A DNA stretch of 63,889 bases, filler included, from Sphacelaria rigidula (lineage: Eukaryota), in assembly GCA_964200075.2 (NCBI GenBank). It is 9 parts of 9 records of this genome, joined end to end, with 100 filler letters (N's around TTAATTAATTAA, not from the genome) between each part and the next. Parts side by side here need not be neighbours in the genome. Positions count along the whole stretch, not along the records: positions 42,663 to 49,671 come from CAXNAA020016972.1; 8 more parts are not named here. The stretch is one strand, 5' to 3'. The stretch's first letter is position 1. Each line of letters begins with the position of its first letter. This document shows positions 7,012 through 58,507 of this stretch, in pieces. A model generated the notes under the pieces. It ran no database searches and was not told the DNA's origin. It saw nothing but the letters and a program-made list of their open reading frames with translations. A program made the translations under genes and the position numbers.

Positions 7012-7111
7012 NNNNNNNNNNNNNNNNNNNNNNNNNNNNNNNNNNNNNNNNNNNNTTAATTAATTAANNNNNNNNNNNNNNNNNNNNNNNNNNNNNNNNN
7101 NNNNNNNNNNN
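7012..7111. other. Artificial 100-bp contig spacer (N + TTAATTAATTAA + N). Same spacer at 14123-14222, 21233-21332, 28343-28442, 35453-35552, 42563-42662, 49672-49771, 56781-56880
   Basis: Identical spacer with stops in all frames. Contig lengths are 7011, 7011, 7010, 7010, 7010, 7010, 7009, 7009, 7009. Confidence 0.98.
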
Positions 7112-7749: not shown

Positions 7750-8000
7750 ATCACACCTTTCGTTTTTTGTCCGTGTTCCTTGATCACTTTCTGAACCCAC
7801 GTGCAGATCTGGGGTTCGATCTGTACAAAAATGTTCGCGATAGGATTCAAAGCTGGTGGTTTTGGGGACAATCTCCTTTCAAAAGGCGATGTTGAAAAAG
7901 AGAAAAAAAAAACGTTCGATAAGAAAGGCCCACTACGTGGTATTCAAATGATGAGGCACCCATGAGGCAGTGTATACGCCGTGGTTGCATGTGTGCGTGT
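7750..8000 (-). pseudogene. Possible decayed Tc1/mariner transposase fragment
   Basis: LLKGDCPQN / PALNPIANIF resembles the DWPxxSPDLNPIEN motif; frameshifted and the Glu is lost. Confidence 0.35.
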
Positions 8001-8106
8001 ATTCTAGCGCCCTGTCTACCTGCTTCTGTAATCCTTATGCTGTTCCTGAAATCCCCAATCAATCATCCGCGAACATCAATCCTTTCGTAGGGGGGGGGGG
8101 TTATCA

Positions 8107-9760: not shown

Positions 9761-10106
9761 AGCTTTTTCCCGTCATGATCAAACGTTTCCTTGAACGGCT
9801 GGAATTACGTTGGCACCTGGACACAAGGGCGTGTTGTATACAACGAATGAGTTTTCCCGATGCAGTCACGGCCGTTTTTCTGGATGCAGTGACGTTGAAC
9901 GGATGAAGGAGTTTTTCCGATGCGGTCACGTCCGTTTTTTCCGTCATTTCTGGCCATATTTCGGCGTGATTATGGTGGGAAGTGTAAACTACTGTTCCGA
10001 GAAGGATCACACGCTTACTTGATTCCAGTATCGAGCGGCGGATCATTTAGGCTAATAATATATCAAAAAATATAAAAATAAATGTATATATAATATATAG
10101 GATAGG

Positions 10107-11418: not shown

Positions 11419-11601
11419 TGCAAAGAAGGATGGCGAATAAGCACTCTCGAGCTCGACTCCACCGAAACTTTAGCTGAGTTGATTGTACAGCAGTAGAGGA
11501 CGGGACTGTGGAAGTACGAGGGCGGGTTCTTGTCCTCAAAACAATCGACACGCATGCGGCAACATGTCGCCCTCCACCCCCTCCAGGATTTTCTCCTTTA
11601 A

Positions 11602-12103
11602 GGGTTGGCGTCGGTTAACGACGACGCTGTGAAACACGCCACTCACTGCGTAAGCTAGGCACTCGGCTTACCGTTTTTATTTCTGGCTTTCGTTTTTTGG
11701 CGGTGACCATGATGGTGGTCGACTTGGATCGTATTGTGCGGGGCGAAGAACCTCAACTCCGCGCAATGGGGATGATCATACTACGTAGTGTTGAGACGAT
11801 AAGATACCCAGGAGGCGGTGTGTAGCCCGTGACTGTCTCTGGAGGTGGCGAAACCAGAAAATGAAGAAAGTCATTCGAGGCTGTTAAGCACGTGCAGGAT
11901 AATCAGTACTCTTCGCACCAAACAATCTCAGCAGGGTAAAGCTCACCCCTCAAGCAACTCGCCGAACACATCTCGGCATTTATCGCTTGGTGATTGATTG
12001 CGAGCCTGGTCCGGCGAAATTCGGCATGCCTCGTCCCGGCATTGTAGGGATGCAAAGTCAATGGTCTTGCGACTATGGCATGCAAGATCATGAATAGTCC
12101 CCC
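11602..12103 (+). mobile_element. SINE family C, full-length copy with TSD
   Basis: Same 5' start as the copies ending at 31898 and 35110, plus a LINE-like tail. Flanked by CC(C/T)CCAGGATTTT(T)CT at ~11580-11594 and 12099-12114. Confidence 0.85.
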
Positions 12104-12156
12104 AGGATTTTTCTTGGAATGTTTTCGTGGAACGAATTTTTCGTTACCTCAGGTCA

Positions 12157-14636: not shown

Positions 14637-15861
14637 TTGATTTGTTTCATGACGACCCGTACCTACGAACTTCGTCCCATTTAAGATATATACTATACTC
14701 GATCACACCACCGTCAAGACGTGAACGATCGACCAGCGCCACAGCTCTGCACTTCACAGTGATGTGCTCTCATGTGGCTAATTCATGAAACTTGAAAAAT
14801 CCAAGTTATTATCCTGCGCTAGAGATGAAGAGGGAAGAACGATTTTAGGCTGGTGCAGCTCCTACGCAACACGTATCTTACTGAGCACTGAGCAGCTTGT
14901 CTCTGCAAAAACCACATCCCGAAGACAAACGTAATGCTATGCTCTCCACAGTTTCCGGCCCCTGACGTATGCACATGGTTAAGCAACGCAACTGTAATAC
15001 TTTTCACACATCCCCCGTGGTGGATCCAGGATCGACCAGGGGGCGTTCGAGATTTCTCTTCGCCTGCGTACAGATATGTCGTCTTCGAACGGGGTAACGT
15101 TTTAACTCTGTCATACTACATCACAATATCGATCTTTCGTGCTGCTCCACATACCACTCCCCCAGGGCCCACGAAAAAAAGTGCAAGGCCTCACTGGCAG
15201 AGCTTATAGGTAAGCCTCAACTATATGCCATTCAATCATTAAAGTGTATGTGTTTCCTATTGCGAGTACCATTTATCAGGTGGTCGTTGCCGCCACATGC
15301 ACCGCGCTGTTTAACCTGAGTTCATATTTTTCGGTTATTTGGCGCGTGTCAATCTCACGGAACACCAAACCCCGTGGTGTAGACCTGTGCAGTGCATGAG
15401 GCGGGCACCGCGTGTGCCAGGTTGTTCACTTTAGTTGCATTCACGATTCACACGGCTATGGGTTATACCGTACGTTGATATAGAGAGGTCGCCTTAATCC
15501 TGCGTGCTTTTTGTTGAGAGACGGACTCGTGTGATTTTCGATTTCGTTTGATCCGCGGGGCGGGTTTGTGCTTTCTTTGTTGAATATCGCCTCCCTACAA
15601 GTCAGACTGCTTTGCTTCGCGAAGGCGGTACAAGTTCGGTTCGGAAGCAGAAGCTACAATCACCACGGTAAAGAGATTGCATAGAGCTGGCAAGGGATAT
15701 TTGGATTGGGGATGATCTTGACGCAAGGGTGTGTTGGTTGGGGTGCACATCTCGTGTGGGAGAAATTGATACTCTTCTCTCTTCTCCCCGACTCCTGCAC
15801 CATACGACCGTATAGTCCCATACAGACAGTCAGTTCACAGTACCGTACAGCTCGTGGCGGC

Positions 15862-15906
15862 AGGGGTGTACTCATGATCATGCATGTCATAGTCATAAGA
15901 CCATTG
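15862..15906 (-). mobile_element. SINE family C, tail only
   Basis: 45-bp tail with degenerate TSD (GGCGGCAGGGG / GCAGCCAGGGG on +). Confidence 0.7.
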
Positions 15907-17166
15907 TAGCAGCCAGGGGAGATTAACCGAGTGCGGGTATTCGGACCATGAGTGCTGTCGCCGGCATGTATTAATTCGTTGTATAGATGCTTCTGTTCCG
16001 GGTTCAACGCGACATGTCATGAAATAAAGCTAAATGACAGCATGGCAGTCAAACTCTGCATTCAACACTTGTTGTTCCTTCCGTTCGCTGGTATGGCCTC
16101 TTTCGCCCATGTTTTTACCAAAACTATGATCGAAGGTGCTATCTTGGTTGTTTTTGTTTTGATAGCACAGGGCCCACAGATGGGGTCAAGACATTTTACT
16201 GGCACGATTTTTCGACCAGTCAGAGCCTCCCGATGTACCAAAATGCGGCGTCATTTCTTCAAACAGATGAGAGAATCGAGTGGGACTGGAGTGGTCAAAT
16301 AGCCGTGATTGGCCCACACATTGCGCCGCTGCCAGTCAGACAGCTGCAGTCATCAATCGCTTGGGATACAGAAGCTCCGTGCTGGCTCAGTTTGCTTGCC
16401 CCAACCTGCAAGCGTCCGCCTTGCGTGTCTTCTCCGATCACAGCACCCGACTACAACTGAAGTACCAAAGAAGACGCAACACACAGCTGCACAGTCGTCA
16501 CGTAATCGTTTGAACTTTGTGTTCAGCACTTTGATCCCACCCCAATTCTGTGCAGACGGTAACACGGCATGCAGCAGTATAGCTGTTCAGGCGTTCTCCA
16601 GCGCACATCACATCATGTTCGTCGTAAAGTGTATGGATGCACAACAGCACAGCGACAACTACAGCATAGAAATGATGGGTGTAGAAAGCGCCTCGTTCGT
16701 TTGACGGAAGACGAAACAGCCAACACACGACAGTGTGCAGACAGCACTGCGTGCCGACAAACACAATATGCTCATTTTCTGTAAAGACAAAGGCAGCAAA
16801 GCAAAGCAACTGACGTAATCCAAGCGGAGACGAAGGTTCCCTGCTTGTGTATATCATCTGTGCGTTAACTGTTCGCGCTCGTCGAACTTCTATTTTAGTG
16901 GTCTCTCTCCCAAGTCCTGTTGTGGGCATTGCACCCCGAGCTTCGCAGTTCTTCCTGTGGGTGCGGGTTCATGTACTCCCCATTAACTCCAATGAAAAAG
17001 CTCACCACGCGGTGAACAACTTCCCGCGTGTTTTTTCCTTCATTGCAATCACCATCACCTATAATGCCGCACTTTCCTACCGTCACCCGCCCTTGGATAT
17101 GATATAATTCAATGAAAACCAAGAAGACAGGCAAACTTGAGCTTGTGCTGTCTGTGCATGGACCAG

Positions 17167-19851: not shown

Positions 19852-20489
19852 GTGAGTCCAGTTTTATTTATGAATTGCGAAGAATTTTCGTCCGTTCATT
19901 TTCGGGTTTGGATCTGTCAGTCGGCTAGATGTGCTTTCGGTGTCTTGGAGCGATCCTGTTCCATGCGCCTAGCCTTGGTTTACTTGGCTACTCGATTTCC
20001 GGGGGCCTGCACAAAAATGAGTTCGAACGCGGCTCCTTTGGCTCGACTCGCCGATAAAGAGTGCACCCGAAGTTACATCAACAGTGCTAGAGAGCAGCTC
20101 CTTACTGGGCACGTGGCAGCCATCGCGTCACCTTAAGCACCTCTTCCCAAGGACTCCGCAGCCGCAAACCGCGCTCGTAAGCGTGCACGTGTGTGTTTTA
20201 TCACTGAGCACCAAGATAGCCGGTCCTTCAATTCCACGGAGAAATGACGCATGATTTTTTGCTTCTATAGGTGTTCGATTCGTGTGACGAGTGCACTCAC
20301 TCTCTCATGTGATACATTTTGCGATTTGATTGATGTCTCTGATTTCTGTACATTCCGAGTGTTTTGCTGCGAGACAGCTCTTCTGGTGTGACAGGTTGTC
20401 ATGTCTGATATGGCTGTTATTTTGTTGATCCCGCCACTCTGCCGGCTGTCGTGGCGTGTTTGTCGTACTTTGAACTCAAACGGGAGAAG

Positions 20490-20612: not shown

Positions 20613-21332
20613 GTACTCGTACTTTACGGCCATTTCGCCTGAAGATACCGCGTAGTACCCGAACATGGCAACGGTGGGGTATCTTACTATGGGTACCCCG
20701 AGTCTGCAGTGTACTTGCAATACCGATTACCGCAGGGTACCTGGGGTATCGAGTTCCAAACATACTGAGTACCGGGGGTTACACCGAATACGGACACCTC
20801 GAAATTCCCGTACTACACCCTAACCACATTCGTGTACTTGCTACTCCAGTGAAGTCCTCGGGTTTGACAAAACGCGAATGTTTCTTACTGTTTTTTTATT
20901 TTACCCCCCGCCCGAATTTTTACCGATGAGGCCTGTGTATACCCGTCGTTGGTGTCAAGATCTTCGGCAACCTCGTGTGGTGGTTCCCACTAGGTGTTCA
21001 CCCCGTTAGAAACCGTGACCAAATATTTGAGTGCATGATAATTGGGTCAGTTTTTTTCCGGACAAAACTTCGTTTTCCTAGCAAAATAACACACTAGTTG
21101 GCGCTGCTGCGTCTCGTGGAGAGAATCGCAAAGCTGTACCTGGGGCTTCTTTCTTATACGTGATTCCCCCCCCCCCCTCTCTCCCACATACAAGGAGGAA
21201 CGGGACGTGCTAGAGGGGGAAATGCGAGACGTNNNNNNNNNNNNNNNNNNNNNNNNNNNNNNNNNNNNNNNNNNNNTTAATTAATTAANNNNNNNNNNNN
21301 NNNNNNNNNNNNNNNNNNNNNNNNNNNNNNNN

Positions 21333-21467: not shown

Positions 21468-22239
21468 GCTGAAAATCTATGTTCACGTTCTGGCTGCGCT
21501 CTATCGAGAAACTCAGACACCTTTTTTAGTAACCGACAAAAAACACGTTTTAACGGTTCTCTTCCACTCTAAAGGTCTTCACCTCGATCAAAGCACGTCC
21601 TAATTTACGACAGGATTCAATGGAAGAGGAAGGCACGCAGATGTCGTGGTTGGAGTCTCAATACGGACCACCGAAGGCGATTTGCAGTGCTACGAGGTGG
21701 GCCCATGGAGTCGTTCAACGATAGAGGAGTTGCAAACACCTCTTCTTTCAAAACGGAGAATGACGCGTTTCCTCTGCTATACTAGCTTGTTCGACTGAGC
21801 ACGCAGGGGGGGGGGGGAGGCTGAACCCCCTCCTGCTCCCTTCCATCGTTAAACGTGTTCATTTGGACACGAAACGCTCGACCACAAGTTGTTGGCAGGA
21901 AGGACTACAGACGGGTGATGGTTCAAGACGTGAAATAATACAGTCGATAGGATGATAGTCGGGTGTTAACTTCCAGTGCTACTGCACGCACTAGGTATGA
22001 CCGTTTTGCAGCATACCTTCTTGTTTATTCGATATATACACGGACATATACATATATATATATATGTTTATATGTATGGTCCCCACCAGCTGCTGTTGTA
22101 GATCTTGTCGTCACGGAAGGAAAAAAGCGGACGCCTTCAGGGCCAGGGAACGGCCAGAGGTGTACACATGGAAAACAAATCAAGGGGTGGAATCGTGCTA
22201 CTACTCCCCCCGACCATCCCCACCGTAAAATGGTGAGTC

Positions 22240-22560
22240 ACCCATGAGGCAAGGTGTAACCCATGGCTGCCAATGAAAGTGGCGATACTATAATATGAAG
22301 CAACTCGTCCGAGCCTGTCATCCAAATGCAAGATAATGAGTACGCATCGGGCCGTACAATCTCAGCAGGATGCAGCTTACCCTACCGACTCGCTAAATAC
22401 ATCACGGCGCTTCGCGCTTGGCGATTGATTCCGAGCCTGGTCCGGCGAAAAGCCGGCATGCTCCGTCCTAGCTTTGTAGAGATACAAGGTCGATGGTCAT
22501 GTGACTACGTCAAGCAAGATCATGAGAATCGCCCCCGCCCGCCCCCCCACCCTTCCCCCC
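22240..22560 (+). mobile_element. SINE family C, 5'-truncated
   Basis: Shared body and tail followed by a C-rich tract. Confidence 0.8.
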
Positions 22561-25096
22561 CTGTGAATCGTTTTGACGCTACAGAAAGACCATCACGAAT
22601 CCTCACCGGTTCAATGATCGTCTCGGAGTCCGTCTGAGCGCGCCGTTTCACATGCTTGTTTCCTGCAAGGTCCAGTGAAGAGTCATGTGCGACGCGGAGA
22701 AAGCACATTTGTACGTACAGTAAACGTGGTTTCAGACGGTGAAAATGTTGCCGGAGGAAGGTATCATATAATATCTAATTCTCAATCTCTTCTGGCTGGC
22801 GAAGGGTAAAAGACAAATGCCGCAAGTTGCCGTGCCACGCACAAGTGACAACTAGCACGGGATTCGTCATGTGATCATTTTTCAGGTAAGGAAGACGCCA
22901 ATTTCAACATACTTTTTGGTTCTTGTACGCACGCACGAGGTGACGGATTGAGACATATCGGGGGTTCACGCAGGCGCTGGACTACGTCACTTGATTTTTC
23001 CGCCTCTTAAAATATGGAACTTGCTGTTGAGAGACGCCAACGAAGAATCTGACGTTGCACCCTTTCGTTCCTGGTGCAACCGTAAGTGTTCCAACGCACC
23101 ATAACAACCGAGAAAAAGGTCAGGATTGACCATTGAGCGCTCTTTATTGTGCGTTTTAGCAGTAAGCACCGCCAGTAGTGCGGCAATTGACCTGGGAGGA
23201 CTATTACGTATATCTTGACTCGTTGTGTGCATTGCTCTGCTGTGACGTTTCGACATTGTATAATATAACATGGGTTGAACCTGCAGCTGTGTCGACATAT
23301 GTTCCAGCTCACCCATCATCATATGAGTTGAAGGAAGTGCATCCGACAATAGAACATCCCGTATGGGACATCGTACCTACCCACGGTTCAGCCGAAGCTG
23401 CACAGACGTGCATATACTTACGCATAACCGCGTGTCCTTGCCATGCAAGACACGAAGTCGCTGCCCTATCACCTGCGGTACAGCATGGGTAATACCATTA
23501 ACGGCTGACCTTAACTGTCCACGCAAAAGAACTATGTTTACACAGTAAACGCTCAGATGCACGGTAGCGTCGAAACGGTCCAGCATGAACAAATAAAGCT
23601 GCTGTAGTAGCACCTTGCGTGTGCGGGACAAGTCGGAAAAGTGTGCGCTAACCAGAGCTTCCCCCAACACCCATCGTTATTTATACCGTCAACTCGAAAC
23701 AGTGTTTTCGTGAGGTTGAGAGTTCAGGGCTGATTGAGAGTAAGCTTTGTTATTCGCTTTAGCTTGGTCCATTTTTCATCATGTGATATATGCTTTTCTT
23801 TACCTGTAACTCAGTCTTGTGCTTACAGGTACACGTCGATATCCTACTCAGGTATATTAGGGGCTTCAGTGACGAGCTACTACAACAGCAAGTGTACCGG
23901 GCCTAGTGGAGGAGCATTTCGGAACATGAATATTCTACCAGTTAATTGACCGCTTCTTACTCTCAATCCCATCCTGGACTCTCAACCTCAATAAAACATC
24001 GTTTCTAGTAGAGGTACGCTGTTCCCTACGAGAGCGCCGAAAATGTTTTTTTTCCCGCCAGATATCGGGGATCCCAGGAGGTGGTGCCTGAAATCTTAAG
24101 CCGCCGTCTCCTGGGCCCCCGGATATCTGGCCAGAGAAAATCGAAGAACCCCCCCCCCCCCATTCACAATCTTTCTGAATATCTCAGAGCATCTCCGAGA
24201 AAAATTTCAGGGTCTATCTCGAAAAATCGGCGTGGACAGTCGCCCGTATAATAGAGCTATGTGCGTAGAAGAATACAAATGTACGCTGGAAACTCTTAAT
24301 TACTTGATCATAGTATACTACCGATGTTTGCCTTGGTGCGCACTTTCAAGTCGACTGTTTGATATAAACTTTTCGAGTGATGCAACGAAAATTTGCACAA
24401 ACGTTTCTTGAACTACCTCGGGACGAGTCAGTTTCATTTGTTTCCATTTAGAATCAATATGTGTACCGGATTCTGGGGGTCTTCAACCTGGGACCCCCGG
24501 AAGCTGGTAGAGAGCGCACAAGATTTGAAAAATGTCGTTCAACGGTTTTGTTTTCCACCCGTATAGCACCCACATCTACCAATTAAACTTTCACGCTTGA
24601 CGATGATCGGAGCTTTTCTATGAAAGTTTCAGGGGAAAACGTCGAGGCTTTGTAGGTCTCCGATGCACATCCTCAGTGAGTGCAAATCCGACGACGACGC
24701 CAAAACCCTACATCATCACCGAAATACCACGTGGTGGGGTACAATTCGATCCCGTACAAATCGATTTCCAAAACGTTTTTGCGTTATTAGATTCGCTGGG
24801 TGATGGCGGCTACAAAGGTTTGATTCGTGGTGAGATTGGGTATAAAATGTGTTGACAATTCGCATATTATTTTTCAGAACAATTTGAAGGCCCATGATTG
24901 ACCGGGAAATATTTTCACTGCCAGCGCCACGGCAAAGGTCGCACGCAAAATTTGGTCATGTCACGCTGTTCGCTTGCATGTGGGGGTCACTATGATACTA
25001 AATATGCTTCAATCGGGTCAGTTTTGCGTTATGTATCTAATGGGGACTAAATTTTGGGCATTCACCATGATGAACTAGCCTGCATGAAAAAAGGCC

Positions 25097-28262: not shown

Positions 28263-28333
28263 GCCCCCCCCCCCCCCCCCCCCCCACCCCACCCCCCCCC
28301 CCCCCCCCCCTTCTCTCCCACCCCCCCCCCCCC
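28263..28333. repeat. Poly(C) tract near contig end
   Basis: Direct observation. Confidence 0.95.
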
Positions 28334-28448
28334 GCCAAACACNNNNNNNNNNNNNNNNNNNNNNNNNNNNNNNNNNNNNNNNNNNNTTAATTAATTAANN
28401 NNNNNNNNNNNNNNNNNNNNNNNNNNNNNNNNNNNNNNNNNNTTCATC

Positions 28449-31419: not shown

Positions 31420-31898
31420 GGGTGGGGTGGGTGTACTCATGATTCTGCACGCTAAAGCCGTGGGACCAACGACCTCGCACCCCTACAAAGCTGGGGCGGA
31501 GCACGCCGGTTTTTCGACGGACCAGCCCTTGCAATCACCAAGCGCGAAGCGCCGTGATGTGTTCGGCGAGTCGCATGAAGGTGAGCTGCGTCCTGCTACG
31601 ATTGCTCGGCCTGGAGCGTACTTCTTATCTCTCCATGTGGCAGCCTACAATGAGTTGCTTCATCTTCTGGTATCGCCGCTTTCAGAGACAGAGCCACGGG
31701 TCACACTGCTTCATGGGTATTTCACCATATAAACACCGCGTACTACGAATATCCATTTTGCGCGTGATTGGGGTTCTCCACCCCGCACAATACGATCCAG
31801 CTCGGCCAGCACCATGGTTGCCGCGAAAACACGGCCACGTGGTTCCAACCTTACGCAGTAAATGGCGTGTTTACAGCATCCTCGACAACCGCGCACCC
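31420..31898 (-). mobile_element. SINE family C, full-length diverged copy (intronic)
   Basis: Aligns along its whole length with 11602-12103. Confidence 0.85.
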
Positions 31899-32082
31899 GA
31901 AAGGCCAATCAGTGTTCAGATAACCCTTCCCTGGTCAGAACTAAAACGTCGTTGCACCGATTGGTGCACATGGTAAAAAGACGGCTGTAGGCGCCGCAAG
32001 TCAATTGACAAACGCGTCTCCATCGGGTTTCAATCTTCAGTTGTATGGTATGTTGTACACATGGAAGGAAACACCAACTCAC

Positions 32083-33358: not shown

Positions 33359-34550
33359 GGGGGGGGGGGCTACTCATTTGTTGCTTGCCCTCGTCGTCTG
33401 ATCATTCGCCATGCACCCATTTTGAGACGGAGCACCGTTCCTACTCCTAATGGAAACACCCCCAACAATTGGGTGCTCACTCCGTTTCTTCCACACATTA
33501 CAAAATATACATTTTACATATCTCATTCCCGTCCTGTTTCGTCGTCTGTGGCCACCATCCATCTCCTAGTATAGCCATCGTTTTCTCTACTGTCTAATGC
33601 ATCGAACGATTTCATGCCACCTTCGTTCAAGTCCTGCATTTCCCCCTCGAGCACGTCCCGTTCCTCATCGCATACTTCACATTCTGCCACTACATGAGTT
33701 CTACTCTATTGCTTTTCCACAGGAACAATTCTGTGAATCTGATTCCTCCTCCTTTCGACGACTGGTATATCTTTCTTCTTTCTGGCAGGTCCAAGGTCCC
33801 CAACCGAAATCGCAGTTTCAAACTTTTCGCCGCGTCCGTTGGGCCATGCAGATATGTTTTCATCCCTCTCCCCTCTCTCCACCCCCCGTATATATTCAGG
33901 TGTTTTTTCTCGTCTATTTTCCGTCTGAACCGTTCTTTTCCCTTATTTCTATCACGCCTCTTACTTTCATCTTGTACCCCCCACCTTTATTTATGGACAG
34001 TATTTCGTCTCGGTTTTGTTCTATCTCCTTCCATAGTTTCTCGACTCCTTTATCCCACCTTATTCCACCCTGCCCTTTCGTACTTTTCTTCCACATAGTC
34101 CTATCAACTGTGGCTGGCAGTCTCTTGATGTGCATGTTCTTCACGGTATATTGCCATTTCAATTTCTCATAACTCTGATTGTTTCCAGTGGGTGCATTCT
34201 CAACTCTGCTCTCAATCCTATTACTCGTCGTTTTCGAGCATCCAAGTATCTTCTTGGCTGCTGCCATCTGCACTGTTTCCAGCTTCTTCACCAACTTCGC
34301 GTTCCCCTCCCATACTTCTCCTGCATATTCCAGCTTTGGTACAATCACGTCCATCAGGATGCATCTCTTTATCCTAGTGTCTAGGTGCGGGTCTCTGAGG
34401 ATCACGTTCATTCTGACAATCATTACCCCTTTCTATCACTTTGTTCATGTGTGCATCCCGAAAAAACTTTCTTCATATCTCTACGTCAAGGTATGTATAC
34501 TGGTATAAGATCGGCAGTTCCTCTTCTCCCCACTTCCATTTGAACCCTAC
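33359..34550 (-). mobile_element. 5'-truncated, frameshifted LINE (RT C-terminus, Cys/His segment, oligo(C) end)
   Basis: LPILYQYTYL, then PKLEYAGEVW..LETVQMAAAKKILG (non-LTR RT thumb), CSCG..THVVAEC. The last frame ends ..TTRASNK* followed by GTAG+C11. Confidence 0.88.
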
Positions 34551-34580
34551 TGGGTTCTAATATTCGTTACATACAAGTTT

Positions 34581-35452: not shown

Positions 35453-35928
35453 NNNNNNNNNNNNNNNNNNNNNNNNNNNNNNNNNNNNNNNNNNNNTTAA
35501 TTAATTAANNNNNNNNNNNNNNNNNNNNNNNNNNNNNNNNNNNNNNNNNNNNGTTTCTTAAGTTTGTCTAAAATTTGAGGCTGATTTTCTTACTGACACG
35601 TTTTTTACTAGCGGGCCGGTACTGTGGGAGGCGTACATCGGCGCTAAATGAACTTGAAAGCCCAGCAGGAGTGGTGCAAGAGTTTTGGGTTTACCCAACG
35701 GGGGTGTAGCAGGGTTGAGCAAAGAGCGCACACATTTTTTCTGTCGATGCATCGGGGCTTTGTCCTGGCGTACACACGAGAAGTCGACCGAGTATTTAAA
35801 TTCGAATGTGGAATTTTGATGTGCGGTGCTCAACTCGTATAAAAGTTGGGTTTGGCAGTGACAACGAAGATGCTTCCGCGAGGTGTGTACATAGGAGTAT
35901 GAGATTCGATTTTGGGGCCGTAAAGGTC

Positions 35929-36071: not shown

Positions 36072-37243
36072 TTAACCCTTACACCACGAGATTAGTCTTG
36101 CTGGACCATGCATACTTTATTTCACTTGAAATTGATGCCGATTCAACCGAAGACTAACCTCGCGGTCTAAGGGCCCTTAGACCGCGAGGTTAGTCTTCGG
36201 TTGAATCGGCATCAATTTCAAGTGAAATAAAGTATGCATGGTCCAGCAAAACTACTCTCGCGGTCTAAGGGTTAACTCTTAGACGGCGACCCCCCCGCTG
36301 GTAGACTGAGGTAGACACTCCTCTTTTTGAGTTTAGAATCATTCCTGTGTCACAACTCAAAACGTCTTCTCTACGGCGGAAGGGACCGGGAATGCATAAG
36401 AGGCACATAGTTGTGAGAGTCATAATACAGACGGTGGTGTGGTTGTCGACCACCTGATTATTACCCTCGTATTTTCGCTGTGCAGTCTGTAGTGTATCGT
36501 GCCGCGGCTGCACGTGCGGTCTGCAGAGTACTGGATTTCACAGTTTTGAACGTGCCGAGTGTACGCAGCGTGCGTTTAGATATCGCACTATGACTACCGC
36601 CGCGAACGCTCCTGACTACCGTAGAGCAATTGCCCGGCGATGGCGGTCGCCTCACCGTCGAAGTGCTTGTCTACATACTCGTGGCCGCCGCTCGTGTGTT
36701 GCGCTATGACGTTTCACACCAGATGGAGGTGTGGAGCTAGTAGGGCGCCCAGGCAGTACTGAACAGACACACTGCACCGAAGATGCTCAATTACCTCTTT
36801 TTTTCTTATATAATCTATGGTTGATTCGGTTTGATGAAAATGAGATTCGAGGGTAGACGACGAATGTGTCTATAGTACCAGCTGTCTACCTCTACTGAAA
36901 CAAAAGTGCTCATTTTGACGACTGTGATTGGTCAGAATGGTCATCCCGCGTCACTCGGGCCTCGTGCACGGCTTATAATTTCTCGCGAGAAACTTCCAAA
37001 CACCCATGGTTGACTCCGTGAGCTTCTCCGATGCTCCGCGGAGAGACAACTCCCCCCCCCCCCGAGCCCCGGAAAGCCCCTCGGGACTGTCAGCCTGTAC
37101 AACTGTTCCGAGGCGACGCTCGTCGTTTAAGGGTTAACCCTTGAACCGTGGTGCGGGTAGTCCACCTGAAAAACGCATACTTTTTTCAAGTGAAAATTGA
37201 TGAAGATTCAGCAGGTGACCTACCCTCGCGGTCTAAGGGTCAA
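36072..37243. mobile_element. Nest of TTAA elements: MITE(+), MITE(-), 858-bp non-autonomous element (36276-37133), MITE(+)
   Basis: TTAA at 36072, 36272 and 37134, TCAA at 37240. The 858-bp element has TIRs CTCTTAGACGGCGA / CCCTTAAACGACGA. Confidence 0.8.
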
Positions 37244-37445
37244 TGGTCGACGAGGGAAAGGGAGTGCTGGACCCCTCTCGCGATAAAAAAGAAGGGCAAG
37301 CACCGCAGGATGAACGTGGAGTACTACATGTAAAAAAAAAATCATATTTTGGCCTTCCTCCCGCGTGACTTTGGCTGGTGCATCCACATATACCGAAAGG
37401 TGTAGACCGGCGTCCAGAAGAGAAGGGACGACAACACACACACTA
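37244..37445 (+). mobile_element. SINE family B, 3' half
   Basis: TGGTCGACGAGGG.. through the CA tail; continues 35929-36071. Confidence 0.8.
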
Positions 37446-42562: not shown

Positions 42563-42662
42563 NNNNNNNNNNNNNNNNNNNNNNNNNNNNNNNNNNNNNN
42601 NNNNNNTTAATTAATTAANNNNNNNNNNNNNNNNNNNNNNNNNNNNNNNNNNNNNNNNNNNN

Positions 42663-42811: not shown

Positions 42812-43691
42812 GAAAAGGGAAGGGGAGGGGGGGGAGGCAAAAAGGTGAGGAAAAGAAAAGAGAAGAAAATAAGAGAGAGCGAACAAAAGATGAGGACGGA
42901 AGGACGAACGAAGAACGACGTGGAAGGCAAGAAGAAATGAAAAGGACGGAGGAAAATATCCGAACGACGAAATCATTATCAACAGGGGTCTGTGACGAAA
43001 ACACGCCGTACGTTGAGTTGGTAGTGATGATATGGATAATGACAAGGGGCACGGAGATTCTGGAGGGTTCTGGATAATGACCGGGGACACGGAGATGGTA
43101 TCTGCAGGTCTAGAAAGCTGGTGCCCCAGAAGGGCACTCCTGAATATTGAGAATATTGTAAAGGTTGACAACTGACTCTGAGGTCAGTAAGACTGGGGAG
43201 TCCCTCAACAGCAGTGATCCAGCAGTGCTTACACTGGTTGGCGTCACAATATCGATATTAGTGCTAGTGCTAGTGCTAGAAACAAAGGATTTCGGTAGGA
43301 GTCTGGGAGCTGTGGAAACCTGATACACCACGGACGCGTGGAGAGGGTTTCAGCTGAGGCAGCTGCAGAAAGGCGGCTGGCCTGTGATTGATCCAGACTG
43401 GAGACTTGCTGAAGCTGCGTGCAGCGGGAGTTTGGAGGCTCCTACGACTGTGTGGTGCGGCGACGAAGCAAGGAAAGTGCAATTCGCGAAGGTCCGCTGA
43501 CCTGCAAAGGTTCGCAGATAGCCGGTTACAGCTACAGCTATGGCGACACCCGTGGTCATGCGGGGAGATCTTTGACCTCCCCAATGTGGGGATAGGTACT
43601 CAGAGAGTGCATCTCGCACTTTATTTCGAAGTACTTTAAGTACAAGAAGCGTGTGAAGCACGCTAACGAAGGGGGTGCTGTGCGGCATTAA

Positions 43692-45485
43692 GTGGTGCCA
43701 ATGGCTCAACAAGTGCCAACTTACGTGCAGAGAGTGTTTGCTCGTTTGGAGCATAAGAAGATCACAATCACCCCGCCACGATTGGTTGCGGCGATAAAAA
43801 AGCATGCTGGGCATGCGGTGGGCACTTGCCACTGTTGTGGCCAGGTCGGTCATTACGCGCGCGATTGCCCAACGTCTTCCGGTGGAGAGTCGGGGCAGTC
43901 TCATGCCGCGCGCCATCAGCATCGTCAGCACAGGGGCAAAAGACGAGGTAATCGTGGTGGCGACGGCGGATCCTCCGGCGGTGGAGGGTCGCAGTCGAGC
44001 CCTCGGCAGCAGCAGCAGCAGCAGCAAGGGCAGCGGCGTCAGCACGGGTCTGGTTCTGGGTACGGCGCCGCTGTAGGTGCTGCTGCTTCGCAACGGGCGG
44101 TGCAGGCGGGACCGACTCCTACAGTGTCGAACACTGCGCCGGCGCCGGTGGTGACGCCGGCGGTGACACCGGCAGCAGCGCCAGGCGCGACGCCTGCTGA
44201 CGCGCTGGCCGGATGTTCGCCAAATTCTTGGTCTGCTGGCTGGGGGTCATACCCGCCGGCGGTGCCGTTTGAACCTGCCGGGGCGTCTTTGCCTGCGCAG
44301 CTTGCGCAGCCGTGGCGTCAAGTGGGATTAGCGACGCATAGGTCAGCGGAAGAAGTTCCCGTGGAGCTTGCCGATAGATACATTCCGCCGGAGTCATGTC
44401 TTCCGAATCAACGGCAGTGTGGAGCCATTGTGGCTCGGTCTGTGTTGGATTCTGGCGCCCATTTCATTCGTCTGCCGGTGCAGATGGTTGAGATGCTGGA
44501 GCGACACCTCACGGGTGTGCCGCTGCGCATCCCGTTTTCGCTCGGGGCGCGGCAGGCAGTCACCGCGTCAGGCCAGCATGTTTCAGTCGCGGAGCGTACT
44601 GTTCCGTTGCAGCTAGCCTTCAAGACTGCTTGGGGGCTGGCGCCGTTGCCTCCGATCTCGTTTGCGATTATGCCAGGGTCGGATGGCGTTGTTCTTCTGG
44701 CGCTGCCGACGCTACAGGATCTTGGAGTCGACCCGTATGAGCGGTTGAAGGACTCCATCAAGACGCGGATGTCTCAGCCTGGTCCGCCCGTGAAGACGGC
44801 CGACTTTTTGGGCAGTCGTCGCGTGAGTTTGTCGGTGGATGCTTTTCAGGAGACTGGGAGACAGGTGACCGAGGAGCGGGATGCGGCGGTGGAACGCTTA
44901 GAAGAGCGCAGCCCGGATATGTTCATGGACCGGGCGGAAGAGGAGTCCACTCCGACGATCGCGCTGGAGGAGAGCGTGACGGATGCTGTGGCGAAAGACC
45001 TCAGCGTCTCGAAAGCGGAGCGCCTGCGCGGCATATTGCATTGCCGCGTCAACGCATTTCGTCGTGCGCTGCGGGGTGATCCCCCTGCGCGTGTGAAGCC
45101 CATGCGTGTTCAGCTAAAACCTGGGGCGTCCGCGGCGAAGACGAAGCCGCAGCGGTACGATCTAGTGAAGTCGAGTTGGTTGGCGTTGTGCATAGCGGCT
45201 CTTTTGGCGCTCGGGTTGGTAGTACGGAATTTGCAGGCGGGGTGGTCCAGTCCAGATATGGCATTTTCGAAGAAAGCTGCATCGTGGACGAAGGGCAGGC
45301 TGCAGGCGTGGGCGGCAGCGAAAGATCTGGTGGCTCATGCCGTGACGCTGTTCCCTCGTCGTCCTGATTGTCAGGTGTCCATGTTCCTAGATTCATCTGA
45401 GTGCCATTGCGGTAGATTGGTCATGCAGGTGCCTACAGTTGAAATTCAAATGCCTGTGCGCGCTGAGGCTGTATGGTCCGTGTGA
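43692..45485 (+). pseudogene. Gag-protease-deleted RT ORF
   Basis: CHCCGQVGHYARDC zinc knuckle and VLDSGA protease. RT N-terminus WSSP is fused directly to thumb/RNase H start; no YxDD. Confidence 0.85.
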
Positions 45486-45665
45486 ACCTGATGACTCGAT
45501 GCCGTCCGAATCTGTTGTCCGCCAACCGCAACGAAAATACCTTGAGGCCGAAGACGCGGATGTGCAATATTTCAAGTCGGACGCTGGTGCTGCTATCTTG
45601 GACAATGAAGGCGTGTGCATGTGCGTGGCCGAAACGTTTTGTGAATTCCGAGTTCTGACAAGCAG

Positions 45666-46432
45666 GTGCAAGAACGTCTGATGATTTGCGCGCACATGCG
45701 CGACGCCGGGCATCGTGGTGTGGCTGCGACGCTCGTGCGCTTGCAAGAGTTTTGTGTCTGGCAGGGGATAGAAACTCATGTGCGCGAATTTGTCCGCCAG
45801 TGTCTTCACTGTGCTGACTCGAGGGCGGGCGATGTTGTTCCCTGCCCGCTCGGCGAAACGGTCCATGGGACCACGCCGAATGAAGTCGGTCATTTTGACT
45901 TCTTGTACGTGGGCGAGAGTGGCCCGCTAACTTCCCAAGGTTTGTCAGAGGATGCTGTGTTTCGATACATTTTGGTAATCATGGATGATTTGAACAACTT
46001 TGTGGCTCTGGAACCAGTAGCAGTGTGTACTGCTGAATCGACCGTTGCATCTTTGCTGAATTGGTGCAAACCTTTGGGGGTGCCGCGTGTGTGGGTGAGT
46101 GATAGTGCCACGCATTTCAAGAATGCGATCTTGGCCCGATGGCGAGAGGCTTTGCGCGTTGATAATCAGTTTGCGGTAGCGTATTCTCCGTGGACTAACG
46201 GTACGTGCGAACGCACGGTCAAGGAAGTAGTTCGTGCTCTTCGCTCTATTCTTCTCGAGCTAAGGACATGTTCCAGCATGCTTTCAATCAGGGGCAATTT
46301 CAGATGGCTGGTATTGTCCGAGTGGTGGAAGCAGAAGATCGTTCGCTGATCGTGTTGGTCGACTGGCCTGGTTTCGAAGTTGAGGAGCGTACGTGGGAGC
46401 CTTTCAAGGATATTTTTGAGGCCGCTCCGTAA
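45666..46432 (+). pseudogene. Integrase and chromodomain (frame change)
   Basis: H..GH..CLHC zinc motif, HFDF / VSDS / NGTCER DDE residues, then VDWPGFEVEERTWEP chromodomain in another frame. Confidence 0.88.
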
Positions 46433-47486
46433 TCCCTCACGAAGGAGTTGCGTAAATTGCGCGTGACTCGTACCGTTTCTGCTCGCATTACGAGTGAGTT
46501 TGGTATTCAATTGTGACTTCTCATCGTTTTGGCGTTTTCTATGTTTCAAGCTTGTTGATCGATTTTCGTCCAACGCGCTTTGGGGGTGCTGTGACGAAAA
46601 CACGCCGTACGTTGAGTTGGTAGTGATGATATGGATAATGACAAGGGGCACGGAGATTCTGGAGGGTTCTGGATAATGACCGGGGACACGGAGATGGTAC
46701 CTGCAGGTCTAGAAAGCTGGTGCCCCAGAAGGGCACTCCTAAATAATGAGAATGTTGTAAAGGCTGACAACTGATTCTGAGGACAGTAAGACTGGGGAGT
46801 CCCTCAACAGCAGTGATCCAGCAGTGCTTACACTGGCTGGTGTCACCGGGCTGACAATTTCCGTGTCCGAGTTGAATTTGACGCCACGAAAATCGGCATG
46901 AAACGAGGCGGCGCTACATCTCTCTTGAAAGAAACATCTAAGGTGAACGGGTCGATTCCCAACAGCTTCTGAAAGCTTGAGATAGAGGTCTTCACTACAC
47001 CTACTGAACTACATCAACCCTCGACAAAACGCCGTTTGTAGAGCCTCGTTTGCAAAAACCATCCTGGGAAGGAGGGGTTCAATCTTCGAGCGCCCGAGCG
47101 AACTTTTCCCCTACGTTTGTCGCTGACAGTCCCGTGGGGAAAATGACCCACGGCGTACCTCAACTCGCCATTCGGTTTGGTGTACATGAGCAGTTTGCAG
47201 GCGGTATGCGTGTTGGTCTACGCTTTCACGTAGGCATTTCCTCTTCGCCAAAAGCAACTATTTCTAGTCGCTTCCTCCTGGATCCTGGCCAAGCTGATTT
47301 CCAACTCGAGACTCGGGTGCTCGAGGGATTGGGATTTCGAAGTCCATCATTCTTTGTGTTAGTCCGCTTCATGAGGACAAACATGTTGGGGATTCGTTCT
47401 ATCAAAACTTCGAAGCATCAGCGACATGTTGGTGCCGTGGCGGCACAGCCGCTACGAATGGGCGCAGCCCGAGTCGTAACGCCTCT

Positions 47487-47580
47487 CCCCCGGCTAGTGC
47501 TCCGTCTCGAAAGGGACGCGTGGTCAATGGTCGAACGACTGAGGCAAGCAACAAATGAGTACGCCCCCCCCCGGCTAGTG
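47487..47580 (+). mobile_element. ~70-bp LINE 3' end with perfect 13-bp TSD
   Basis: CCCCCGGCTAGTG at 47487-47499 and 47568-47580 flanks the tail ending AAATGAGTACG+C-run. Confidence 0.9.
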
Positions 47581-50500
47581 ATGGGGCTCCGCCGGCGGTA
47601 AGCAAATACGCGTTTTGTGCTCATCTTCAAAATCGAGCTCTAATGGATATCCAAGGGTGGCGCCACGCGGGCAAGGTGGAATTTTGGCACTTCCTGGACA
47701 ATAGACAATCCAAAATAGTACGCAACACGCTGACACCTTACGCAGTAGTTTTTTTCATCCGTTGTAACTATTGATTGTCTCTTCTCCAATGTGTGAATTT
47801 TTCATACCCTGGACAGAAGAATACACAGTCAAAAAGTGTACTGCGTACAGTATCGACTATGGGGCTTATTGCAATGGACAATAGATTCCATACTGCACGC
47901 AGTACATTTTTTTGACAATATAATGTAGTGTTCAGGGTGTGGAATGTTTGCCCAGAAAATAGGGGGGAAACAGTGCATCAACTGATACAGTACACGCATA
48001 TATGAATATATAAAGCACATCCTCTTCAGTGTCATCTACTGGGGGTGTTGCTCACACTCAATGCTTCCCACTGGCGGTCGTGCTGCGGCAGCAAGGCCCT
48101 GCAGATCAGCCACGTTTACACGTACACGTACAATAATGACGATAGTATAACAAATCAATGGAAAATGACAGTAAAACGTGCGCATTCGGTGAGTAAAGCT
48201 CTGCGCAGCCATATACGTATATTGGAAGACGAAACACTCTGCAAATGTGAACGGGCGATGAGTTCTCCACAAATACTTGTGGGAATTTGTCCGTCTATTT
48301 GGTGGTGTCCACATCTGTGCCCCCTTCGCGAGCTTTTTCGTGCGTTTTTTTGACGAGGAGAGGTTTGTAGGGGAAGCCTTCTTCGACCAGCAGCGGTGAG
48401 GCATATATCTTGCATATCCTGCACCTTTCTTTACATATCTCTTGCGTGCATTGGGTCCCCAAGCCAACAAACTCCGCAGAAGAGCTGTCCGTGAGGCTGA
48501 ATACTCCGCTATCAAAGAGTTGGTCTCCCGCCGTTTTTCTGGTATCCCACCATTTTTTCTCAAACACGTTCTAGTGACTACTCGCGTGTTCCGGGACATC
48601 GCCATTAGTATTGTGCAAGCTCTAACAGCAGATGATAACCCTCTGCGCGTGCTAATTGAGGGGTATAGGACACTATCTTCCCGGGTTGTCGGTAGTCTCG
48701 TCAAGAAAAACGCAAGGCATCACCAGTTCGGGTAGGTTGTAGTCTTTTCATCCATCGGTACCGGTCACACGTTTAGATTCCGCAAATGGCTCATACGTCG
48801 GATAAAAAACCCTTTCTCGCTGAAATTGATCGGGCAAACGATGCGATGATTTCATCCCTAGGAAAGGGAATGGGGTAACAAGGGCTTAAGGCCGTTATTG
48901 TCGACACAGTTTTTTGGGAGATCGCCAAGATTTTAGGCGTTTTCGCACCTTTTTTCCAACCTTCTCCCGAAATTAAGGGGCGAGATTTTTTTGCCAAGCC
49001 TTCACGTTTGGCGATAGTCTAGTATTTCGGACACCAGCACAATTCTCCGCAGAGCTGCCCTTGGCGCACGCCGCGGCGCTCGCAAGCATGCGAGAATCAT
49101 CAGGAACCTCGCTAGTGTCACCCTGGGCTATGTCGTAGAGAAAAAAGCACCGCCGGTTGGTGGTATCTATCCCCTTAGACGGTGTGTGCCCCGGCAGCGG
49201 TGTTGGAGCTGTTGGGGCCAAGCACGGTGGTCGTCGTTTGCAGACATACGCACTTTCGAAGCGAAGAGAGCAGAAACAATCCAGTAGCTACTTACTTGCC
49301 TGCAGTGCTGCTACGAGGGTACCCTACCGTACTGTCTGAAAAGTGTATTGCTGGTGGTTTGATTGGGTGTATCTGCGAATACAACTCACAGAAAGAAAGC
49401 ATGCAGCAATCTATGCACGGGGCGTTCTACAATCGGTATTTTTACTCATGTGTGCTGCTGCAGCATCCCGAGACAGCCGGTCGATCACGCCCTAGCCTGT
49501 CCGACTGCCCCCCCGTGCCACAGAGAGGTTGCGATAAATATGTTTACCACAGTTATGAACGCCATACACGAGCAGGTAGCGTAACCCTGTCCTTTATTTT
49601 GCCGGCGAAGGCAAGCAAACGACGAGATCAGCACGATCTGTAATGAGATATCCAACACCAACAGTAGATCTNNNNNNNNNNNNNNNNNNNNNNNNNNNNN
49701 NNNNNNNNNNNNNNNTTAATTAATTAANNNNNNNNNNNNNNNNNNNNNNNNNNNNNNNNNNNNNNNNNNNNAAGTGTGGGGAAAGCACTGTTTTAGGCTT
49801 GAGCCTCATCTCGAAGTTAAACCTCAATTCTCACAATTTGTTGTTCTATGTTGATTCAAGCTTTGCAATTTCCGTTCACGACAAATCGGCTCGCATGGTA
49901 TCGTGCCTTGTAGCATGTATGCACAACCAGTATGGCATTACGGTCACACGAGCAGTTTCGTGAATTCGCGAAGTATCCAGAGAATAAAAATGACCTTCTT
50001 TTACCGTTGCATCCGTAGCCATGCATGAGATACTCTAGCAAGTGATTCGCGTTCCTGGAAGTATATGCTGTACTCGTTACTACTTGTAGCCGACAACATC
50101 CCGATAGCTCCTGTGTATCTTTTCCGCAGGCAGTTCGTTAACTCCCATCTGCTGGTTGATATCGCATTGAGTAGTTTCACTCAGGCAACACGACCATTAC
50201 TACCTCATGTTTCCCCACAGTATATAGTATCCAATAGACAGTACGCGGCAGAGGTTCTTCTGCATGCATAGTCCGACATTTGATATTCGATGGTGATTCG
50301 GAATAGTTTTGTTCCCATAGTGAAAGCACATTACTCATGCACTGTTAGACTGAAAAGTGAACGAATTCATCGGGGAGATGGAGCAGGCCGTAATCAGTCA
50401 GTACCGTCATCTCGTACAGCCATATTGTAACAGCATCACAATAAATAAGGCGGTAGCATGTCGTAAAACCCAAGGGTGTTATCGCAACTCAATGTGTGGA

Positions 50501-56642: not shown

Positions 56643-56880
56643 AGACTTTCACCACTGCTTTGATGCATAGCTCCCCCCCCCCCTGCCCCGGTGTCCAGCA
56701 ACACCGTTACTGGTGAGCGGTGGCTACTCTTGCTGTGGTGCCAAACTTCAGCTTGTACCCACAGCTGTTGTGCATCGTTCNNNNNNNNNNNNNNNNNNNN
56801 NNNNNNNNNNNNNNNNNNNNNNNNTTAATTAATTAANNNNNNNNNNNNNNNNNNNNNNNNNNNNNNNNNNNNNNNNNNNN

Positions 56881-57003
56881 CGAAAACCCGGCGTGCTCCG
56901 TCCCCGCTTTGTAGGGATGCGAGGTCAATGGTCTTAATCTTATGGCATGCATGATCATAAGTACACCCCCCCTGTAGGTCAATCATGCATGATCATAAGT
57001 ACG
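56881..57003 (+). mobile_element. SINE family C 3' part with re-duplicated tail
   Basis: Tail+C7, then a second CATGCATGATCATAAGTAC. Confidence 0.8.
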
Positions 57004-58507
57004 CTATACACTTTTTGACAATGTAACGTATTGTCCAGGGTGTGATACAGATACATAGGATGTATGGGCGCTGCCTTGACCAACATTGCCCGATTTTGCC
57101 GCGAAAAGCATGTACTGTCAGCAAACACTCCCTCGATAAAACAGAATTTTGCTCGGTATTTATTGTCCCGACAAGAAAAGGTTGGGAAACGCGTCCCGAG
57201 CGCGGCCTGTTTTTCCTTCCAATGCCTACCGATGTTTCAAACTTTCGAGGGCAGGCGACAAATCATCTATGAAAAAAAATCTTAATTGGATAAGAATATG
57301 ACAATTTGACCTTGTACCTACCTACTTACCTACCCTGTACGATCTACGGGTCTTTACACACAGTTACATATCTACTCGAATCGATATTCGTGTTGTACAC
57401 CACTTTCGAGGTTTCGGCGCTGCGTGCTGCGTGCTGCCGCTGCCTTCGTCCACTCACCGGTGCTCGCTTTTTTTTGGGGCCCGGCTTTTTTTTCTTCTTT
57501 TCCACGTCTTCAGCTTGCTCCGCCGCCTCCACCTTGAGGTCGCCTCCACCCTCTTGTGAAACCTGGACGGACGATAACCTACACATGGATGATGACCGAA
57601 TTCCCTGCGTAGCAGAAAGATACCTGCCGTCGGCGATCCAGCGATGGAACGCGAGGGGGGTGGGCGGGGATCGGGGGAGACGAGCACGTTTCAACGATCA
57701 TTGTGGTATGACCAGGAGGTGTAAAGTGATCAGTGACAGAAAGCAGTAAATCTGAAAGGGTGGGTGGGTGGGGTACAGTATTTCCTACATGTGAGTATTT
57801 AGACAAATCTCACTCTACAGTACCCAGATATTTCGGGAGAGTTCGGAGATCGAACCATCGAACCACGCAGCACAAAATTCGGGAGAATAAATACCCCGGT
57901 ATTTACCCCACCCAACACACCTTTCCAGTGTTACAGGGTACCCAGGGTATGAACTGCCGAAGATACCCAGTATTCCGGAGTACTCAGGGTATTGACACCT
58001 CAACACTAGGCAATCTGGGGTGCACGTCTGATACAGTACTTGCTAGTATATATTTTCTGGACCATGTTACATATACAGTATAAGCCCCCTCTCCTCCAAT
58101 CATTGGACCCTGTAGCAAGAAATAAACGCAAATTCTTGATCTTCGCCCAAAAGTTAGTTCGCGCTGTGATTGTTGGAAAAATATCGTACAATTCAATTTT
58201 CAGGCTTGTCGCGGATCAGGTGAGTCCCAGTGCGGGTTCCGAACTCCATACACCGCGTGTTCTGAAGTGCTGTAGACACGCCAGCCGATTTTAGAACCCG
58301 GTACAGTAATTTATGTATATTTCCATATATTATATATTGTAGCCTATGCTTTGCAAGTGCGTTGGGTACGATTTCATCGCCCGGCATGTATGTTGTATCG
58401 GCTCTACAGCAAAAATCGAAAGTGCGTTTGTATGGATAATACAGTGGAAATGGACGATGACCAAGCACCACCGACACGCCATATTCTCGGTTGTGTAGAC
58501 AGTAGCC

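Follow-up and report, generated by a model that had tools for sequence, protein, structure and literature searches.

Plants and animals harbour RTE-related LINE/SINE pairs in which the first nucleotide of the target-site duplication (TSD) is the repeated nucleotide of a microsatellite-like tail, and the tail RNA was proposed to base pair with the nicked strand and/or to guide the cut (Nishiyama and Ohshima 2018, PMC6007223). As described in the parts of that paper available to us, the tails consist of (GTT)n, (CAA)n, (AT)n, (A)n or T stretches, and the target signature includes a nearby homopolymer, also in a split form with a T stretch ~10 nt upstream of the cut. The same paper recounts the L1/Alu mode of target-primed reverse transcription, also established knowledge, in which poly(A) primes on a nicked T-run. 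The mobilome of brown algae has only just been catalogued: a 2025 paper on the transposable elements of Ectocarpus presents RTE-X as the most abundant LINE group, along with RTEX-N1_Ec32, an abundant non-autonomous element of ~600 bp that has its 3' end in common with RTE-X LINEs and whose 5' origin the authors did not determine (PMC12477816). In the portions of its main text accessible here, that account of RTE-X is silent on tail composition and target sites.

The LINE and its partner described here are similar to the RTE-related pairs in having a common 3' end, no poly(A) and a short-repeat tail (Nishiyama and Ohshima 2018, PMC6007223). They differ in that the tail is (C)n, a type absent from those listed in the available parts of PMC6007223, and that the host is a brown-alga-type genome rather than a plant or an animal. 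They also resemble Ectocarpus RTEX-1/RTEX-2 and RTEX-N1_Ec32, compared by description in the accessible text, in that a short element with an origin-less head carries the 3' end of a LINE (PMC12477816).

The window, that is, the whole stretch of 63,889 bases from Sphacelaria rigidula that was analyzed, consists of nine pieces of ~7,010 nt each, with a GC content of ~48%. The pieces are joined by spacers of the form N44-TTAATTAATTAA-N44, so that sequences flanking a spacer are not genomic neighbours. The features are listed in Table 1. The LINE is represented in the window by 3' fragments only, the longest of which is B2, whereas its partner is a SINE-like element of ~510 nt. Six of the piece ends fall within tails of LINE or SINE-like copies, as though this repeat interrupted the assembly.

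Table 1. Retroposon copies, the insertion at B1 and other features, in window coordinates.
Feature	Position	Strand	Remarks
S7, SINE-like tail + C7	6837..7011 (including LINE fragment)	-	8-nt CATGAGTA duplication
5'-truncated LINE fragment	6942-6837	-	starts 8 nt after C7 of S7
Internal LINE fragment, 8082-7997	7997..8100	-	C11 seven nt upstream
S1, full-length SINE-like	element ~11595-12098; with TSDs 11583..12114	+	C5 tract, TSD CCAGGATTTT(T)CT
S5, SINE-like tail + C8	14223..14336	+	5' part cut by piece start
S10, ~40-nt SINE-like tail fragment	15906-15867 (with TSDs 15855..15919)	-	degenerate TSD starting CCCCTG
C12 tract, 11 nt later a 5'-truncated LINE fragment	21166..21232	+	fragment runs to piece end
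S4, 5'-truncated SINE-like	22218..22568	+	long C-rich end; C4 and C6 upstream; TSD doubtful
S3, SINE-like, ending CACCCACCCCACCC	31420..31903	-	no TSD found
B2, 1.2-kb 5'-truncated LINE	33359..34576	-	ends GAGTAG + C11
Z, full-length SINE-like	35119-34597, C-rich end to 34581	-	5' end joined to Y
Y, 3'-truncated SINE-like	35371-35124	-	fused to Z
S8, SINE-like tail + C8	35394..35452	-	cut by piece end
S9, SINE-like tail + C14	42512..42562	-	cut by piece end
B4 and B3, tandem LINE tails	B4 42814-42744, B3 42735-42663	-	B3 5 nt after C-rich end of B4
LTR retrotransposon	42985-46846		263-nt direct repeats, 96% identical (42985-43247, 46584-46846)
B1, upstream TSD copy CCCCCGGCTAGTG	47487..47499	+	starts with C5 (47487-47491); stands in for pre-insertion target
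B1, 64-nt 5'-truncated LINE 3' module, ending AAATGAGTACG	47500..47563	+	94-95% identity to LINE end on L050
C9 tract at 3' junction of B1	47564..47572	+	5 C can be TSD, 4 extra
B1, downstream TSD copy CCCCCGGCTAGTG	47568..47580	+	exact repeat
S6, SINE-like tail + C7	56881..57002	+	followed by 30-nt partial tail-end repeat without C-run
Spacers	7012-7111, 14123-14222, 21233-21332, 28343-28442, 35453-35552, 42563-42662, 49672-49771, 56781-56880		piece joints

The insertion B1 presents the clearest case. The preliminary description had placed a perfect TSD around a LINE end at this site, which proved correct: the two copies of CCCCCGGCTAGTG match at 13 of 13 positions and are the only exact occurrences in the window. 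This LINE end does not belong to a long LINE, and no LINE body lies at 43-47 kb. The copy is a 64-nt fragment in unique DNA, and the adjacent region is an LTR element with its LTRs and with two long ORFs, one (43692-45482) carrying a gag zinc knuckle and the other (45645-46346) an integrase. The 64 nt match the last 64-67 nt of the LINE and are followed by 4 extra C. Immediately before GTGCTCCGTC, the five LINE copies found outside the window and the window copy B2 carry TTAGGAGTAGGAACG, not CCCCCGGCTA as at B1; positions 47487-47496 therefore belong to the flank, and GTG represents a 3-nt overlap at the 5' junction.

The run contigs, from public runs that contain the site and bear the labels of one coded organism and 'algae metagenome', revealed that the upstream flank of B1 is single copy, with a summed depth of ~65 compared to 0.8 million for the tail bin, and that 46875-47342, upstream of B1, is single-copy DNA as well. 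Contigs from three samples, two of which have their own SNPs, cross from the unique flank into B1 at both junctions, which indicates that the insertion is real and not private to one assembly. Among the joints listed, none skips 47500-47580 in the manner of an empty site, and the X1, X3 and X4 contigs enter the insertion from both sides. Given that homopolymers are error-prone and that the window is a nine-piece construct with six piece ends in tails, the 13-nt repeat and the C-runs might be thought to come from chance or from homopolymer assembly or polishing errors. However, the same three samples reproduce both junctions, the tail with its C-run recurs on five unrelated outside contigs, and the 13-mer is found twice in exact form, whereas only 0.95 matches are expected from shuffles even when two mismatches are allowed (five such matches in the window). 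An artefact of this kind is thus scarcely credible.

The full-length SINE-like copy S1, for which the preliminary description had also given a TSD (around 11602-12103), is flanked by CCAGGATTTTCT (11583-11594) and CCAGGATTTTTCT (12102-12114), which have 10 exact nucleotides plus CT in common. Its upstream copy begins with CC and is preceded by CCCCCT (11577-11584). On the minus strand, the tail fragment S10 lies between CCCCTGGCTGCTA (15907-15919) and CCCCTGCCGCCA (15855-15866), with 10 matches over 12 positions and one indel. As a control, the longest stretch of exact identity between the two flanks was taken for each of the ten copies with both junctions in view, and its non-C letters were counted and compared with 90 cross-pairings of flanks from different copies. 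B1 has 7 such letters and S1 has 8, more than any of the 90 cross-pairs, the maximum of which is 6. The TSDs of only these two copies stand above the control; S10 and S4 do not, and the other six copies are without any. The degenerate repeat suggested near 15862 is present and does start with CCCCTG, but it is not above the cross-pair noise of the exact-match control. A control based on alignment scores was dropped, as C-rich flanks match one another and cross-pairs reached scores of up to 18. For the outside LINE copies on L050 and L049, a search for TSDs found none, the 5' end on L050 being undefined.

Both secure TSDs, B1 and S1, are C-initiated in the upstream copy, as is the degenerate one of S10, although the sample is small. 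In 2 of the 2 secure TSDs, the first nucleotide is thus the repeated nucleotide of the tail, as in RTE-type elements. The targets of B1 (47484-47495) and S10 (15911-15922, minus strand) agree at 11 of 12 positions, TCTCCCC[C/T]GGCT, and their wider flanks are unrelated. With n=2, the shared letters could reflect either a longer target motif or chance. A repeat family common to the two flanks was considered and rejected, because local alignment did not do better than with shuffles and blast gave no matches.

The C-initiated TSDs are accompanied by C-runs at the targets, as the preliminary description had claimed. In a small and partly hand-set list of 22 curated 5' junctions, a C-run of at least four was found within 25 nt upstream on the element strand at 13 junctions, compared to 6.5% of random 25-mers from the same sequences; equivalent runs of A, G and T were seen at 2, 0 and 1 junctions, respectively. 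Further out, from -50 to -26 of the same junctions, C-runs and G-runs occur four times each. A second list was derived automatically from merged BLAST matches; in it, nested copies are fused, and several entries on diverged outside contigs are points where the alignment drops off. It gave C-runs at 10 of 23 junctions and G-runs at 0 (binomial 7e-7 against the 6.5% background). The restriction of the excess to one strand speaks against a neighbourhood that is simply rich in C/G. The upstream C-runs begin 10-24 nt before the junction, fitting TSD lengths. Nine of the 22 junctions are without an upstream C-run, including those of S3 and of the 5'-truncated LINE copy on L049. The run contigs hint at a wider, genome-wide pattern: in three of the four runs, their consensus just upstream of the truncated tail is an element-strand C-run, with an agreement of 0.44-0.47.

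At no fewer than three of the positive junctions (B2, B3 and the fragment at 6942), the C-run upstream belongs to another copy's tail; B2, for instance, begins 4 nt past the C6 of such a tail, a SINE-like one. In such cases, template switching between RNAs could mimic the picture. The C-run might be purely element-borne, supplied by a master-copy template or by RT stuttering, with targets that are not chosen for C and upstream C-runs that result mostly from nesting or RT jumping. The Y-Z chimera (35371-34597), which looks like an RT jump since Y has no continuation after Z, fits this reading, as do the 8-nt and 30-nt tail-end duplications and the tail-to-tail joints, with spacers of 2-7 letters, in many run contigs. 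However, B1 and S1 sit in non-repeat flanks and their upstream TSD copies are C-initiated, and removal of the three tail-borne cases still leaves 10 of 19 junctions against the background of 6.5%. Moreover, G-runs are found at none of the 22 junctions, so that the excess of C-runs follows the orientation of the element. We consider a purely element-borne C-run distinctly unlikely.

The preliminary description had counted about 14 C-rich tails and no poly(A), in agreement with what we found. All 14 LINE and SINE-like tails in the window with their 3' end in view lead into a C-rich tract, ranging from C4 to C14 and interrupted in some copies, and all five outside LINE copies have runs of C8 to C13 at their end, in two cases with a T interruption. 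Poly(A) of the L1 type follows none of the 14 window tails and none of the five outside copies. The C-run of B3 itself is cut off by the piece end.

The lengths of these runs bear on where the C's come from. The main rival to our reading, with which it agrees that the targets carry C-runs, is a homopolymer-specific LINE whose endonuclease cuts (C)n/(G)n and whose RNA ends in GAGTAC(N) without a C tail, all C's being contributed by the target. In S10 (C4 at both ends) and S1 (C5 compared to CCCCCTCC), the C-run at the 3' junction does not exceed that of the upstream copy in length, so the C's there could all come from the target. The tandem tails in the run contigs, and the new copies that lie 4-11 nt past older C-runs, as do B2 and B3, the three LINE fragments (at 6942, 21189 and 8082) and the copy on L068, would also be expected from such an enzyme. 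By contrast, B1 has 9 C downstream compared to 5 upstream, S4 has extra C's as well, and the outside LINE copies carry C8-C13, whereas the upstream TSD copies have C4-C5 and runs as long as the former are rare as targets. Slippage of the homopolymers after insertion blurs this comparison of lengths in either direction. We regard a target-only origin of the C's as unlikely, and we infer an oligo(C) end on the RNA itself.

Non-templated nucleotide addition by non-LTR RTs is established. The C tract might thus arise from G's that the RT adds to the nicked end before copying, or from extra nucleotides at the 5' junction, in line with the variable length of the runs (C4 to C14). Addition at the nicked end predicts an upstream TSD copy without C's, whereas C's are present in that copy at both B1 and S1; nucleotides added at the 5' junction would lie next to the element, and instead 8-11 duplicated non-C nucleotides intervene. 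A non-templated origin is therefore very unlikely, and an RNA-borne oligo(C) end inserted at C-run targets is retained as the preferred reading.

The source LINE was sought by a pattern scan with two conserved tail blocks over metagenomes and genomes, which yielded 60 loci. Five of them are real homologues (the named loci include L006, L019, L049, L050 and L068), and the remaining 55 were rejected as chance matches, homology being absent beyond the pattern itself. Two viral pattern scans gave 0 matches and 4 loci, respectively, and these 4 fell outside the homology check. L050, L019 and L006 each contain one large ORF on the element strand, of 1382, 1426 and 1253 aa, respectively, the element's 5' end being undefined. 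Each ORF has an Exo_endo_phos domain (E 7e-13 to 8e-11) and an RVT_1 domain (E 8e-33 to 1e-30), an AP endonuclease and an RT in one element, as in APE-type non-LTR retrotransposons. Matching the ORF of L050, B2 gave a tblastn E value of 3e-81 and 76% identity in blastn. As expected for a LINE, copies are 5'-truncated, ranging from 64 nt up to 1.2 kb, and a TSD above controls flanks B1; most of the other copies are without a clear one.

The ORF stops with the TGA within AAATGAGTAC, 5 nt ahead of the C-run. Because the stop codon lies inside the conserved tail, the tail is coding sequence and the 3' UTR amounts to GTAC(G) plus oligo(C), that is, ~5 nt plus the C's. RTE-group 3' UTRs are described as very short; the LINE here has such a 3' UTR, with a simple repeat and no poly(A), as in RTE and RTE-X elements. 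The nearest named relatives of the RT and of the ORF are Ectocarpus proteins with 64% identity, and Ectocarpus LINE proteins share the C-terminal peptide NAPSSRG.VVNG, as encoded by the tail module. Compared to solved structures, the RT is equally remote from L1 and R2 (L1 ORF2p match, E 2e-21), and a protein atlas returned only generic APE+RT clusters, with no clade placement. The LINE is probably RTE-like and of the RTE-X group as annotated in Ectocarpus, a clade name that we derive from these sequence features and offer as a lead. The module of 113-190 on L050 (minus strand), corresponding to 47500-47563 in the window, is protein-coding in the LINE (...NGAPSRKGCVVNGQMTKASNK, then stop). It codes for a peptide and is at the same time common to the LINE and SINE-like 3' ends, so that one sequence would be under both coding and RNA-recognition constraint.

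The non-autonomous partner aligns to the LINE tail over its last ~75 nt at 72-82% identity, with the common blocks GTGCTCCGTC, GGTCAATGGTC and ATGAGTAC. It thus has the 3' end in common with a partner LINE, as SINEs do. For its head, a search of the whole window for a tRNA, 5S or 7SL origin found no tRNA (ARAGORN) and no Rfam match at the gathering score. We therefore call it SINE-like, a LINE-dependent non-autonomous element rather than a strict SINE. Single-sequence folding energies of the tail RNA were no better than those of shuffles (z -0.69 to +0.58). A 9-pair hairpin in the SINE-like tails, with compensatory change at only 2 pairs, is suggestive at most of a structured tail.

Altogether, we propose that an AP-endonuclease LINE and its partner, which have in common a ~70-nt module ending in C's, insert by target-primed reverse transcription at C-run targets, and that old tails become new targets; we put the probability of this reading at about 0.6. 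In the LINE RNA, the module would finish with ...AAA-TGA(stop)-GTAC(G) and then a few C, and the LINE protein would presumably recognize this ~70-nt 3' module both in its own RNA and in that of the partner. Reverse transcription would be primed at sites with a C-run on the future sense strand of the element, where the first nick would expose G's at a 3' end on the opposite strand. This G-run end would then pair with the C's that terminate the RNA, or those C's would guide the position of the nick, and copying would begin there; we infer the C:G pairing step itself. A second nick ~10-16 nt downstream would produce a TSD that begins with the C-run. Copying would often halt near the 5' edge of the module, giving rise to very many tail-only inserts. 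As each insertion leaves a fresh C-run, old tails would become targets, leading to chains and tandem tail arrays.

Similar to L1/Alu, the pair described here combines an AP endonuclease with an RT, is often truncated at the 5' end, has TSDs whose first letter is the tail nucleotide, and includes a partner mobilized in trans. It differs from L1/Alu in the C tail and the lack of poly(A), and in the ~70-nt 3' module common to LINE and partner, which corresponds to the stringent recognition type. Compared to L1/Alu, moreover, the module is protein-coding with a 3' UTR of ~5 nt, and the RT has no more than a distant relationship to L1 ORF2p. Microsatellite-targeting LINEs of the R1/Tx1 group also have a 3' end that matches the target repeat and form head-to-tail arrays within it, the targets being di- to tetranucleotide repeats. 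Unlike these LINEs, which belong to other clades, the elements here have many insertions in unique DNA where no more than 4-5 C are present, so that any target specificity is loose.

The preliminary description had cast this as a GC mirror image of L1 priming. The C tails and C-run targets support it in part, and the target could be chosen by the endonuclease, as that description implied, or by primer annealing. The idea is less novel than it appeared, as the match between tail and TSD in RTE-related elements was already described in PMC6007223, to judge from the parts available. The overlap differs as well: animal RTE elements have 1-2 nt in the accessible text of PMC6007223, compared to 4-5 C in the upstream TSD copies here. 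No LINE or SINE with an oligo(C) or poly(C) tail turned up in literature searches, judging by titles and abstract openings among the matches listed. The family and the principle are thus known, and the C tail, the 4-5-nt overlap and the self-targeting arrays are apparently new relative to the accessible portions of PMC6007223 and PMC12477816.

If the C:G pairing holds true, these elements would provide a natural experiment on how far the 3' end of a LINE RNA decides its landing site. They would have the enzyme architecture of A- or T-tailed relatives with another tail nucleotide and an apparently longer overlap (4-5 compared to 1-2 nt, the latter as given in the available parts of PMC6007223). 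The pairing would also account for the many long C/G homopolymers and for the tail arrays that break the assembly. A stronger form, in which at least four terminal C's of the RNA pair with the nicked G-run and steer insertion to C/G homopolymers, so that self-made targets build ~80-nt tail arrays and the C/G excess of the genome, is possible but put forward tentatively. In the window, 11 C/G runs of at least 12 were found, compared to 1 A/T run. The suggestion that the elements seed most C/G tracts was not borne out, since only 6 of the 21 C-oriented runs of at least 8 directly follow a recognized tail; another 3 are found shortly before truncated pieces of the LINE. For annotation, tail-only fragments of ~65-80 nt with C-runs should be taken as retroposon scars, not as regulatory C tracts.

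Several minor observations concern the tails themselves. A cluster of C22, C19 and C13 with short C-rich spacers lies at a piece end (28264-28333). The fragments at 6942 (minus strand) and 21189 (plus strand) begin at the same LINE position (TACAAGGAGGAAC..., ~300 nt from the end), each 8-11 nt past a C-run, which could mean that truncation is favoured at this point or that the fragments represent a short subfamily derived from the LINE. Tail-end duplications were found at 6956-6972 (minus strand, the 8-nt CATGAGTA), at 56956-57002 (plus strand, the 30-nt partial repeat) and on L049 at 2617-2660 (minus strand, ATCGAGTAC twice), and suggest RT slippage or re-initiation at the 3' end. The contigs with L049 (bin G001) and L050 (bin G002) carry a eukaryotic LINE and SINE-like element in bins labelled as bacterial genomes, and are evidently stray algal contigs. 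A further search of these two bins gave a few SINE-like copies and one tail, and no additional LINE.

Beyond the pair, no RT domain was found by Pfam in the 131 scanned ORFs of at least 100 aa, out of 151 listed in the window; the other 20, mostly frames overlapping the ORF at 17116-20133 or the LTR element, were left out without a fixed rule. The open frame at 17116-20133 (plus strand, 1006 aa, 56-61% GC) is rich in G/Q/A/S/T, has no Pfam match and lies in a region where several overlapping frames are open; it may be a low-complexity gene or merely GC-rich DNA. In the run contigs, a variant of the LTR element skips 43376-44232. The segments 8470-8913, 9501-9772, 36185-36229 and 37135-37254 form a separate repeat family with internal inverted repeats (foldback/MITE-like), unrelated to the LINE/SINE-like pair. 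A high-copy inverted-repeat (MITE-like) element occupies 47780-47950, with a summed depth of ~190,000 compared to ~65 in its flanks. At other places in the genome, run contigs join the C-run end of a tail directly to 47828-47832, and sequence related to this element follows the tail at 56994-57040.
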